Assembly: GCF_026571515.1 (NCBI RefSeq)
Contig: NW_026854133.1
Span: forward strand, 62,001-126,000
DNA length: 64,000 bases
Source: Ruditapes philippinarum
Lineage: Eukaryota
Reading direction: 5' to 3'
Part shown: positions 14,793 through 47,436 of the stretch, piece after piece
Layout of the letters: each line of letters begins with the position of its first letter
Numbering within the stretch: the first letter of the stretch is position 1
Translations under genes and position numbers: made by a program
The notes under the pieces: generated by a model
What the model was told of the DNA's origin: nothing
Seen by the model: the letters and a program-made list of their open reading frames with translations, nothing else
Database searches by the model: none

Positions 14793-17700
14793 ATGATCCG
14801 TGCAGCAGTATTCGCATGCCTTTTGGCAACATCGTTAGCGCTCAACAGTTTCCTTGACAACGAATGGGAGTCATACAAAACCACCTACGGTAAACAGTAT
14901 GAGCCTCATGTTGAGGGACTCAGGTAATTAGATATTTTCTATTTTGTTATAAAGTTTTTTCAACCGGTCCTGGGGGGGGGGGGGGCTGGGACATGTTGCA
15001 CTTCGTAGTCTCTTATCACCAATAGCACCACCCATTTCAACAAAAAAAAGTTGTATCACACTTTCAACAATTAGTTGTTTTTTCTTTTTACTCTCAAGGG
15101 ATCTCGAGCCCCTCTTTCAAGAATCTTTGAACGTCTATAAATAACGATACAATTATTTGCCATCTATTAATTGACAAATATCATATGTCGAAATTATTCA
15201 AAAAATTTTGAAAAATTGAATTACAAGGCTTAACAGTATTTTGTTAATTCAATGTGATGTTCAATTCAATAAAAAGAAGTAGGACACTCATTTTTATAAT
15301 TTAAATAGTTTTTATATATTTATCATACACTTTTTTCATTATCAATTATTGGCCAAACTCCAGCAAATTATTACTAATTCAATTCTACTTGACACCGAAA
15401 AAATTAGCATGATCTCACTTAAATTTTCATATACTATTATGTGTAGTATATCAACTAATAGTGTATCATATCTATCAACTATTAGCTTTATATTCGATAT
15501 CACAAACTAAACATCGAGTTCAAATATTGCAGTTAACAATAATTGATTGTTGTGTTTAATTTAATCTATAGGATGACGCCTCTTATCAACATTTTAGTCA
15601 TTTGACACTGATAGTAAATCACACACCCCATGTTCTATTTCCTCGTATCCTTTGTAGTATTTAGTATGATGGACGCGATTAAAACATACACATATTTTGA
15701 CGGCATATTTATTGTAAATAACGTGTGATTATCATACAATTTTATTACAAAATGTATCTCTGATTTCGCTGCCAGTCGAGTAAAATTTGTCAGGCAAGAT
15801 TAATATTTTTCCATCGACAATGTAAAATAACTACAAAGAATATGTATGAAATATAAATTTTCTTAATCGAAGTTACACCTTCACAAGTCTTTTAATACGC
15901 TGTGTAGATTAATATACAAACGTTTACCATTAAGGCTTCACCGTGCTCAACTGACCACATTAGTGTTACAATTGTGTCAACATTTATCTTTCATGCAACA
16001 CCAGGACATTGTGACTGCAAATATTTGTTGTTCTCACGGATTATCTGGACGTCATTCTACAAGACTCACAATTCCGTAGTTAGTCCATTTCCCTCAGAAA
16101 GTAGCACACTTTTAAAAGTATACCCACATACCCGAAATGAAAATCATCAACAGCAAAAAATCACGTTTTCATATTTTCATATTCATTTCTTGTTAAGATA
16201 TATGATCATGCATCAATGATATAACTATTAATAAGATTCACCTAGCACAATTTCTATACATTGGTTATATATTTTACTACAGACGTGCTATCTGGGAAAG
16301 CAACATTCAGTATGTAGAAAGACATAATCTCGAGGCCGACAGAGGACTTCATACTTACAGACTTGGAATGAACGAATACGGTGACATGGTAAACATTACA
16401 ATCACATAAATGTGCACAATTATTGCATAGAGTGCAAACTTTGAAAGATCAAACCTCTCCGCAGAACGATTACCTCTTTAAACAAACAATATCAGTTCTT
16501 TTCCAAAGTATGATTTAACTATACATGACGTGTAAAGTCTTTTGAACGACGTCTCTCAGCAGCAACCAAGTTCTGTTGTTGGTTGTTAAGTTATATTGCA
16601 AAAGACAACAAATTTCAATGACTATCAAAACTCCTTACTGCCAAAAAATGTCTTTGATTCCTTGAAAACAAATTTTACATTCATGGGTGTGTCTATATGC
16701 TTATTTGATCGTAGCTTCCTACACAAGTGAACTCAAATAAAGCCTGTATCACATAAATCGTTCTGCGTCGAAGAATAAACTGGTACTAAGAATACATGTA
16801 GTAGCAAAATGTTAATGTTTTATTTCTGACGCATTCATATGGTGAACAAATTCTAAACATATAAATGTTTAATGCGTTTTTCACTAAAAGATATATACAT
16901 GTATTATAAAAATATTTTTTTCAGACAAATAAAGAATTTGTAGGTATGATGAACGGCTACAAGCAAAACGTTAGCCGATCAGTCTGCAGTAAATTCACAC
17001 CACCATTGAATGTTAATCTTGGAGATCTTCCCGACAGTGTTGATTGGAGGCCAAAGGGATACGTCACTGAAATTAAAAATCAGGTAACAATTACTTTACA
17101 AATATATGATACTACATGCTCAAATTTAAACGTTTTAAATTTTATCATATTGGTCATAGAAATACACGCGAAAGCATGGTAGTATGCTATGACTAGTTTT
17201 GTTATTTGAAGGGGTTTGCAATAAAAAAACAACCGATCTTGTGGAAGCAACGGTAGAGATGTTATTGATAAATCAATGTCATCTAAAGTTAAAAAGGTCA
17301 ATATTATACTTTTTTCCAGGGACAATGTGGATCATGTTGGTCATTCTCCACCACTGGCTCCCTCGAGGGACAAAACTTCAAGAAGACTGGCAAATTGGTG
17401 TCACTCTCCGAGAAGAATCTCATGGACTGCTCCAAACCAGAAGGTAATATTGTTTCTTTTGTTCTTTATCTTTAAAATTTTCACAGCAATAAAACTTTAA
17501 CATCAAAAGGAAAACAAATCTACCAACAAAGAAGCCACTTAGACATTTTATCAAAACTTTTTTTGTGATCAAGAGCTGCATTGTAACCTTTATGTAAAAT
17601 CCAAATACTAGCATTCATGGATTTGATAGGAAAGAAGAACAAAGAGTCAGCCCCACTTTTGGAAATACAACATAAATGTTAACAACTCACTCGTGAATTG

Positions 17701-44900: not shown

Positions 44901-47436
44901 CAATGCGGATCATGTTGGTCATTCTCAGCCACCGGCTCCCTCGAGGGACAAAACTTCAAGAAGACCGGCAAACTGGTGTCCCTGTCTGAGAAGAATCTGA
45001 TGGACTGTTCCAAACCGGAAGGTATCTTTATATTGTTTAGTTATTAAGTATCGTAAGTTATTATATTAAAGTGACATGAAACTTCTTCGAAAGAATAAAA
45101 TTAAGTAGAATTATAGAAGTGCGAAAAAAGTTCAGTTGTTTTTTGTTTTATGTGGTAAACTAATTAATAACAAGCTCAGAGGACGTATGCTATGTGTTGT
45201 TGTTGTGGTTTTTTGTTGTTGTTTTTTGTTTGTTTTTGTTGTTTTTGATGTTGTTGTTGTTTTTGTAGATTTTTGTGAGGGGTGTGGGTTCAGTTCTTTT
45301 TTTAAAATTCTTAGCTGGGAAGGGGGGTGGGGTCTGTTGTTACTATTGCTTTCCTTTTCTTGTTTTTTATTATTTTCGTGGTTTTTCTTTGTAATTGAAG
45401 TTGTTCTAATGAAAAATGTAAGTTTAATTAAAAAGGCATACAATGGAAGTGTTCTATCTGCTCCTGTTTTCGTGTTCCTGTTATCATTTTTTTTATTCTC
45501 AGGTAACAAGGGTTGTGAAGGAGGTTTAATGGATCAAGCTTTTGCATACGTCATCAAAAATGATGGGATTGACACAGAGAAATCTTACCCATACAAGCCA
45601 AAGGTAAAAGCTTGTTTATATATAAATATTAACACTATTTTGTCATTTTTTTCCAGCTCTTTATAGTGCCCGTTTTCATGGTCATACCTAAAGTAACAAA
45701 GTATCGGAAGCATACATATCGGCACGTCTTTCATATTCTAAACGACTTTAAAGAGATCATTTATAGTTGATAAAAGGCCTCACGTTTACTGCAGACATTT
45801 CTTGTTATAATTAATGAATTATCTACATTCAATTCAATTCAATTCATCTCAATGAATACTGTAAACAGTAGGGACAAGAGTGGTCATATTCCTGATAAGA
45901 TAATTATTATAACTATATCAATGATAATTATAATGATAAAAATAATCACCATGATAGGGATAAATTGATTGCAATACATTAATTAAAAAAATAAGTATGA
46001 TTATGGTTCAATTTTTAGAACGGAGATTGTGAGTTCAAAAAAGAGGACATTGGCGCAACAGAAACAAGCTGCATGGATATTAAAATTGGATCAGAAGACG
46101 ATTTACAAGCTGCTGTAGCAACAGTAGGACCAATCGCTATAGGCATTGATGCTAGCCATCCATCTTTCCAATTATACAGGTACCCGGCTTGAATCTGTTG
46201 GTAATATGACTATGTAAACGCTTCATATGTACTTAACTGTTTGCATTTCAAACAACATTAGAACACGATAGTGGTTGGTCTTCGACCATTTCGACTTTGG
46301 TGAACTGCTTGCGTTTCTGAGTGGAACATCCGTCTAAAATTTCTTGAATAGTCAACATCTTTATAACGAACTTTACTCTCTTTAATAGACGTTCTAAATA
46401 CTTTTCTAAATAATTAGATAAAAGTTGTTTTGTGGGGTGTTTTGTTGTTGTTGTTGTTGTTGCTTTTTGTATTACATTCCGGTTGATAACATGTCAATAT
46501 TGCAAGTTTGAACTGAAAAAAAAAGTTTACTATTCATCAAGCGGGAATATTAATTGTCATGGCAACTGGGAATTGTCAAATAACGCCATGTCTTTTTTTA
46601 GATCAGGGGTATATAGTGAAAGAAGATGTTCATCGAAGAATCTTGATCACGGAGTTCTTGCTGTAGGTTATGGTAAAGATTTCTTGAGGGAATACTGGCT
46701 CGTAAAGAACAGGTGAGCTAATTAACTTGTGGCGACTGGCAGCTTGGCCAGGTTGTTATCACGTCGGACTTATAATCTAAGGATTGCTGGTCACGTGGGT
46801 TCAAATCCTGCCAAAGGCAATGTGTTGCATCTGTCAGCAAGAAACTTTACACTGATTGGTTCTACGAACGGAGTCAAGAGTTTTTTTAATAAGTAAATAG
46901 CTTCCAACACAAACGAACTAAAACAGATTCGTATAAACTAAATTATTTTACTGTTAACTTTAAAAAGAGACTCATCTTTTATACCAAAGTATACAGATTG
47001 TTAAGAGTACTTTAAAAATAGAGTACTTAAAAATTAAATAATTTCTGAATGTATTATTTATTTTCAACATGTCTTATATATGCCCATTTGTGGAGGTTTT
47101 GAAGAATTCTGAACCTCTATCAAGTGCAGAAAGTCATCATCGCGGCCCAAATATGGCTCGAACCAACGACCCCTTGGTCGAAAGGAAGGTTCTGTAACCA
47201 CATGTCCACTTATTCCATAGAGTTAATCCATGTAATTTTTATGGAGCGAAAAAAAAGTTTCCTTTTCTTTCATTCAAACGACAACAAGGAAATTATAAGC
47301 TACAATGAGTAAAGCTTTCTTTTATTTCCCTTTTAGTTGGGGAACAAGCTGGGGCAAGGAAGGTTACATCATGATGTCAAGAAACAAGGACAACCAATGC
47401 GGAATCGCCTCACAAGCAAGCTTTCCTACCATGTAA
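41916..47436 (+). CDS. CTSL: Cathepsin L-like cysteine protease, copy 4 (330 aa, most divergent)
   Basis: Exons 41916-42046, 43257-43362, 44179-44337, 44898-45021, 45503-45603, 46019-46179, 46602-46712, 47337-47436; catalytic residues intact. Confidence 0.96.
42455..42512. repeat. 15-bp minisatellite (acctcgagataaatg) x4
   Basis: Directly visible. Confidence 0.9.
43448..43767. mobile_element. Family A TTAA-flanked MITE in a copy 4 intron
   Basis: ttaagggactgcactgg ... agtggagttct+ttaa; body similar to the reverse complement of 3877-4438. Confidence 0.5.
46730..46942 (+). mobile_element. tRNA-derived SINE (CORE-like) in the last intron of copy 4
   Basis: A/B-box-like head (gggttcaaatcc); core and tail match 3940-4128. 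Confidence 0.65.

Follow-up and report, generated by a model that had tools for sequence, protein, structure and literature searches.

Covalent propeptide tethers are found in the literature for two members of the papain family, cathepsins H and X, and in both cases they alter enzyme function. According to PMC6059440, cathepsin H's mini-chain comprises Glu76P-Thr83P and is bonded through Cys80P, seven residues before Tyr87P, to Cys212, with a glycan at Asn115 supporting it; in crystallised procathepsin H, the linker residues Asn86P and Tyr87P are bonded to main-chain atoms of Val113 and Asn115, contacts that are there termed conserved in procathepsin L. In procathepsin X/Z (PDB 1DEU), as described in a passage of PMC7863939, a very short propeptide is tethered by Cys10P to the catalytic Cys31, and this disulfide strengthens inhibition. 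Here we analyse a 64,000-nucleotide stretch of Ruditapes philippinarum DNA (NCBI RefSeq assembly GCF_026571515.1, contig NW_026854133.1, positions 62,001 to 126,000 of the forward strand; hereafter the window), that holds four tandem cathepsin L genes whose proteins carry an additional Cys in the propeptide linker (Cys100) and another one in the mature domain (Cys225). Predicted models and the joint occurrence of the two residues indicate that they very probably form a disulfide. No description of the Cys100/Cys225 pair was found in the openly accessible literature, subscription journals being outside the search, and the passages seen of PMC8080524, PMC11170211 and PMC7139492 held nothing bearing on it.

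Results

Two Additional Cysteines in Four Tandem Cathepsin L Genes

Each of the four proteins contains ten Cys, at positions 9, 100, 135, 138, 169, 178, 211, 225, 270 and 319. Cys9 sits in the signal peptide, Cys138 is catalytic and six (135, 169, 178, 211, 270 and 319) are the canonical residues engaged in the three canonical disulfide pairings, thus leaving Cys100 and Cys225. The former lies in the motif SVCSK/SVCSQ (copy 1, 16985..16987, TGC; copies 2 to 4, 27106 TGC, 35761 TGT and 44239 TGC) and the latter in SCMDI (copy 1, 18190..18192, TGT; then 28309 TGT, 37382 TGT and 46070 TGC), all on the + strand. A previous reading of the window, made from the letters alone (hereafter the sequence-only reading), had already pointed to these residues: all eight codons that it named are in-frame Cys codons, while its count of "exactly" two extra Cys is correct for the linker and the mature domain and left the signal-peptide Cys9 out. 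Both codons change synonymously between copies with the Cys being kept. At the Cys225 column, the aligned human cathepsin L shows Phe, as that reading had stated, and its linker is without Cys. Three residues after Cys100, an aromatic residue, F103 (Y in copy 4; 16994..16996, 27115, 35770 and 44248, + strand), fixes the register of the linker, and the sole N-glycosylation sequon is at N94 (NVS in copies 1 to 3, NLT in copy 4; 16967..16975, 27088, 35743 and 44221, + strand).

The four genes lie on the + strand of the window, each with eight exons and an open frame of 330 residues. Copy 1 (14793..19462; exons 14793-14923, 16283-16388, 16925-17083, 17320-17443, 17809-17909, 18139-18299, 18630-18740 and 19363-19462) encodes a protein identical to P0001, a Ruditapes philippinarum record labelled procathepsin L-like; copy 2 (25490..29392) shares 92% identity with copy 1, copy 3 (33687..38602) corresponds to P0003, and copy 4 (41916..47436) shows 80-82% identity to the other copies. 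Gene models were assembled by coordinates and have AG/GT ends at every intron. Indeed, all seven introns of copy 1 were seen as GT..AG joints in contigs of four sequencing runs, two of them recorded as RNA and two presumed RNA, to which paralogue reads may contribute given the 92% likeness. Pfam recognised an I29 propeptide and a Peptidase_C1 domain (P0001, P0003 and P0010). Identity among the four copies is 80-93%, with silent codon differences exceeding residue-changing ones in all six pairs, and the catalytic set Q132, C138, H277 and N297 is intact in all of them (in copy 1, Cys138 at 17335..17337, His277 at 18676 and Asn297 at 18736, + strand). The four are intact cathepsin L genes. The S2 residues are L182, M183, A/G249, L275, G278 and S/Q324, the last one at the pocket floor (copy 1, 19439..19441, + strand; Ser in copies 1 and 2, Gln in copies 3 and 4). 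Judged from these residues, the S2 pocket is of the ordinary cathepsin L type and would fit an endopeptidase activity with hydrophobic P2 preference. Domain layout, fold, catalytic residues, the six canonical Cys and S2 make-up are thus shared with procathepsin L (PDB 1CS8, 1CJL), from which the clam proteins differ at both additional positions, the human enzyme lacking the linker Cys and having Phe in place of Cys225.

Joint Occurrence of Cys100 and Cys225

The sequence-only reading had proposed to verify the co-occurrence of the two Cys among homologs. Among 122 near relatives, 121 of which were scored (one fragment was skipped), 54 have both Cys, none has Cys225 alone, three have a linker Cys alone and 64 have neither. 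Two of the three linker-only cases were rejected, P0019 being a two-domain protein that was mis-mapped and P0087 having its Cys 29 residues before the DWR motif; the third, P0062 from abalone, has a genuine linker Cys, placed four residues before the aromatic, and Ala at 225. The linker Cys is followed three residues later by Phe or Tyr in all 54 carriers, in the midst of flanking columns that vary widely. Since the Cys is kept through synonymous codon changes and is retained in 54/54 carriers amid variable linker columns, its conservation goes beyond chance. When 374 scored proteins out of 394 were considered, a linker Cys in register (C-x-x-F/Y/H) was accompanied by Cys225 in 62 of 63 cases, a count from which the fragment artefact P0273 was dropped and which includes near-duplicates. 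Ten further loci of the same genome comprise seven with both Cys, two with neither and one without the linker Cys, whose mature exon falls past the contig end.

Carriers were named in nine genera (Ruditapes, Mercenaria, Mactra, Dreissena, Mya, Sinonovacula, Sinanodonta, Potamilus and Sinohyriopsis), and the pair is absent from those oysters, mussels, scallops, gastropods and the chiton that are identified by name among the near relatives. Among solved structures, none of the 5 + 2 alignments inspected has Cys at column 225, and ESM Atlas returned generic cathepsin L clusters only. The linker of carriers is also distinctive in length: 16 residues separate the aromatic from DWR in 45/54 carriers versus 13-14 in 58/61 non-carriers, and in the same 45/54 it is two residues longer after the aromatic than that of procathepsin L. 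A hydrophobic residue is found two positions before column 113 (residue 111) in 53/54. The sequon, which the sequence-only reading had noticed just upstream of the linker Cys, is indeed present as N94 in all four copies; it occurs in 46/54 carriers and in 48/67 non-carriers, and was therefore rejected as part of a signature of the Cys pair.

Two other columns are worth reporting. Residue 164, encoded in exon 17320-17443 of copy 1 and in the same exon of copies 2 to 4, is Lys in place of the otherwise constant Gln of the SEQ motif; this Lys is found in 40/54 carriers and 0/67 non-carriers, with unionid carriers retaining Gln. Furthermore, four oyster and pearl-oyster proteins (P0054, P0063, P0066 and P0107) have His at column 225 and carrier-like flanks, without the linker Cys, and may be sister to the clade of carriers.

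Predicted Geometry of the Propeptide Linker

The AlphaFold model of copy 1 (predicted local distance difference test score, pLDDT, 92.7) has as its top Foldseek match human procathepsin L, 1CS8 (E 7e-46, root-mean-square deviation 1.6 Å, 51% identity, versus 38% identity of cathepsin H to the clam model), and the predicted models show the procathepsin L fold with the propeptide crossing the cleft. A two-residue strand (101-102) is predicted together with strand 224-227, and the same strands appear in the divergent P0156, at Cys+1/Cys+2 and around the mature Cys. Modelling of residues 115-330 in complex with 85-114 gave a score of 0.63 versus 0.03 for the best control; the mark set for this score is reached by 51/78 solved and 2/108 mismatched microbial pairs, and by 71/105 and 2/126 eukaryotic ones. 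Runs shared at least 86% of contacts, the partner pLDDT was at least 64 and the proteins' own alignment was not used; passing the mark shows likeness only, as the model may remember solved procathepsins.

In the complex model, 225-100 is the contact with the least expected error (1.2 Å). Residue 100 further contacts 227, 226, 187 and 184, residue 101 contacts 226, residues 102 and 103 pair with 226-229, and F103 is predicted to pack on 226-227, 235, 239 and 327. Upstream, Gly90 touches Cys138 and Tyr91 touches His277. In the predicted arrangement the strands run parallel and Cys100 faces Cys225, at a distance of ten residues beyond Gly90/Tyr91, which block the active site. By alignment, the Val113-Asn115 stretch of procathepsin H corresponds to clam residues 225-227, which agrees with the predicted register. 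The proposal that the two extra Cys pair up is thus well supported, both by co-occurrence and by models placing them face to face.

Procathepsin X/Z shares with the clam proteins a propeptide tethered covalently by a disulfide, in the clam a predicted one (passage of PMC7863939). It differs in the residue involved, since in the clam model Gly90, not Cys100, sits at Cys138 (Gly90-Cys138 is present and Cys100-Cys138 absent among the 25 listed contact pairs), and in that the clam propeptide is a full-length I29 domain.

Cathepsin H (PDB 6CZK, 8PCH) likewise shares a bond from a Cys of the linker to the mature domain (predicted in the clam) and a nearby glycan site (PMC6059440). The sequence-only reading had likened the clam tether to its mini-chain, as both Cys lie 19 residues before DWR. 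The figure holds for the four copies and, by the numbering in that paper, for cathepsin H; it is not a conserved register, the distance being 19 in 45 carriers, 18 in three and 17 in six. The equal count arises because the linker of the clam clade is longer after the aromatic. Equivalence by distance to DWR was therefore rejected in favour of the aromatic, whose register does not vary: three residues before it, Cys100 falls at Lys84P, four past Cys80P and one past the mini-chain, and its predicted partner lies on another strand, with Cys100 beyond the S2 pocket. Where cathepsin H has Cys212 at the S2 floor, the clam proteins have Ser or Gln (S, S, Q, Q at residue 324), as the sequence-only reading had indicated. 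Column 324, which we take to be the site of the cathepsin H partner Cys, has Cys in none of 362 mapped proteins.

Convergence on cathepsin H function would nonetheless be conceivable if the remnant were trimmed to a mini-chain that flips into S2-S4, its carboxylate making the protein an aminopeptidase or a short-substrate enzyme. Cys100 touches residues 184 and 227, whose aligned counterparts, Asp71 and Asp114, lie where the cleft has its far end, and the glycan site is on the remnant side, like in cathepsin H, which would both suit this idea. It is however made improbable by the mismatch of Cys100 with Cys80P, by the missing Cys at 324, by residue D227, which matches the mini-chain-holding glycan site Asn115 and is without a sequon (the sole one being N94), and by F103, predicted to remain packed.

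Phylogeny and Recurrence of the Pair

A tree of 250 mature domains was built with the linker excluded and column 225 masked. Outside the near relatives, 136 of 150 distant representatives were scored, nine having both Cys and 115 neither. One of these nine, P0209, belongs to the bivalve clade; the gastropod carriers are by name Plakobranchus, Bradybaena and Batillaria, and these three, together with P0156 and P0147, keep the C-x-x-Y/H register. Approximately unbiased (AU) tests (LG+G4, 43 chosen rows of the 250) rejected the grouping of all 17 sampled carriers in a single clade (p 0.0024), a bivalve + P0170 clade (p 0.007) and, narrowly, a bivalve + gastropod + P0147 clade (p 0.041); neither the ten bivalves alone (p 0.36) nor bivalves + P0147 (p 0.21) were rejected. 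The result favours two or more gains of the pair.

Several observations weigh against a recurrent, bonded pair. The 54 near carriers form a single supported bivalve clade (support 97), and therefore the co-occurrence table reflects one gain followed by strict retention rather than many events. An independent-pairs test found two concordant pairs on starred branches (p 0.5), too few to be decisive. The distant set (136 scored) also contains nine linker-only and three mature-only proteins. One apparent carrier, the salmonid P0244, was rejected because its alignment is shifted by a deletion and Phe is present in P0276, a mate from its cluster; P0155 and P0170 are off register, and among the relatives of P0170 (111 scored, five skipped) none has both Cys, two have the linker Cys only and 109 neither. 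The AU tests used a simple model, their bootstrap was unsettled and the groups were named after seeing the first tree, so that a single early gain followed by many losses may also account for the pattern. On the structural side, the pro-enzyme model has its lowest confidence in residues 91-100 (pLDDT 72). Finally, the cleavage sites, remnant and activity proposed below are inferred from the usual processing of cathepsin L.

Some of these observations would suit a bond-free explanation, in which the replacement of Phe by Cys at 225 altered packing in one clade, with co-inheritance of the linker Cys, or in which the two residues serve separate uses (free thiol, dimer or metal). Near carriers are indeed one clade, in which other marks co-travel, such as Gln to Lys at 164 (40/54), and some distant proteins have the mature or the linker Cys without the other. 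Retention in 54/54 at a fixed register of a fast-changing linker, recurrence of the pair in other branches and the direct contact predicted speak against it. Moreover, two neighbouring free thiols are improbable in secretory-pathway proteins. Taken together, absence of a bond appears improbable.

Proposed Stapling and Processing of the Zymogen

The explanation that we slightly prefer over the sum of the others is a stapled linker, a short remnant of which would stay on an active endopeptidase. The Cys100-Cys225 bond would form in the secretory pathway and brace the zymogen, pinning the linker of the propeptide onto the mature domain immediately past the S2 pocket. At low pH, the helical prodomain would be cut away within the loose 92-99 loop. 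The 91-100 loop starts with Tyr/Phe-Lys/Arg in most carriers, and Tyr/Phe-Lys/Arg is a good cathepsin L cleavage site. Cathepsin L is usually cut before the mature N-terminus, and this site, marked by hydrophobic residue 111, would probably be cut too. A remnant of up to about residues 93-112, possibly with the N94 glycan, would then be held by F103 together with the disulfide; were the upstream cut the only one, the enzyme would be one chain whose N-terminus is extended by a loop. While the propeptide of procathepsin L leaves by one removal (PMC6059440), that of the clam clade is proposed to leave a remnant. Given the bond, retention of the remnant on the working enzyme is likely. An endopeptidase is very likely, and likelier than an aminopeptidase because F103 is predicted to stay packed and there is no free carboxylate near S2. 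The probable effects would be a steadier, slower-activating zymogen and an altered distal S2/S3 surface.

The bond might instead act as a redox gate, holding the propeptide until it is reduced by a lysosomal thiol reductase or free cysteine, so that activation would, as in procathepsin X, need both acid and reduction and the mature enzyme would be ordinary. The same co-occurrence and geometry fit such a gate, the bond would be exposed at the surface, in a linker that is held loosely (partner pLDDT 65), and procathepsin X, whose propeptide disulfide is reported to strengthen inhibition (passage of PMC7863939), offers a parallel. Nevertheless, a staple ten residues past the blocking segment implies that a cut within 92-99 would free the active site without reduction, and the cathepsin H disulfide persists in lysosomes (PMC6059440). 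We thus regard the redox gate as rather unlikely, though less so than either convergence on cathepsin H or absence of a bond.

Neighbouring Loci and Other Features of the Window

A fifth, copy 4-like locus is found at L001:4700-7879 (G000:C2620 about 141700-144900), with 94-97% DNA identity. Exons 3, 6, 7 and 8 were found, while exons 1, 2, 4 and 5, including that of the catalytic Cys, were not found in L001 or L011; degeneration or misassembly of the locus is likely. In record P0012, copy 4 appears to be spliced onto the later exons of this locus. The cluster continues in L002-L003 (G000:C2620:150256-164071), where a divergent gene that carries both Cys is followed by an ordinary cathepsin L without the pair on the opposite strand. 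Another divergent carrier, at L008:4180-9965, has both extra Cys in register and a Cys135 motif CRSCY, like P0147.

Intron 1 of copies 2 and 3 contains tandem repeats of about 62 bases, which include the exon 2 start (26196-26430 and 34800-35100). On the - strand, a reverse transcriptase-domain frame of 1080 codons (4935-8177), accompanied by short upstream open reading frames (8332-9330), is a retroelement of the long interspersed nuclear element type, and decayed pieces similar to it lie at 59598-60817 (- strand). A long GAT-rich simple repeat (48665-49271) reaches the only N stretch of the window (49090-49233).

Discussion

Beyond the four genes described here, the pair may represent a third papain-family tether, evolved repeatedly in molluscs, by which a glycosylated linker peptide stays on an active cathepsin L and either reshapes the S2/S3 end of the cleft or makes activation thiol-dependent, in an expanded and undescribed subfamily of clams and freshwater mussels; put in these full terms, the proposal is a tentative one, with the odds somewhat against it. 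If true, it would amount to a recurring means by which a main protease of lysosomes and digestion is tuned in its activation, stability or specificity, at a third site that is kept across clams and freshwater mussels (nine named genera) and is found again in gastropods. Proteins that are labelled plain "procathepsin L-like" may thus be processed differently.

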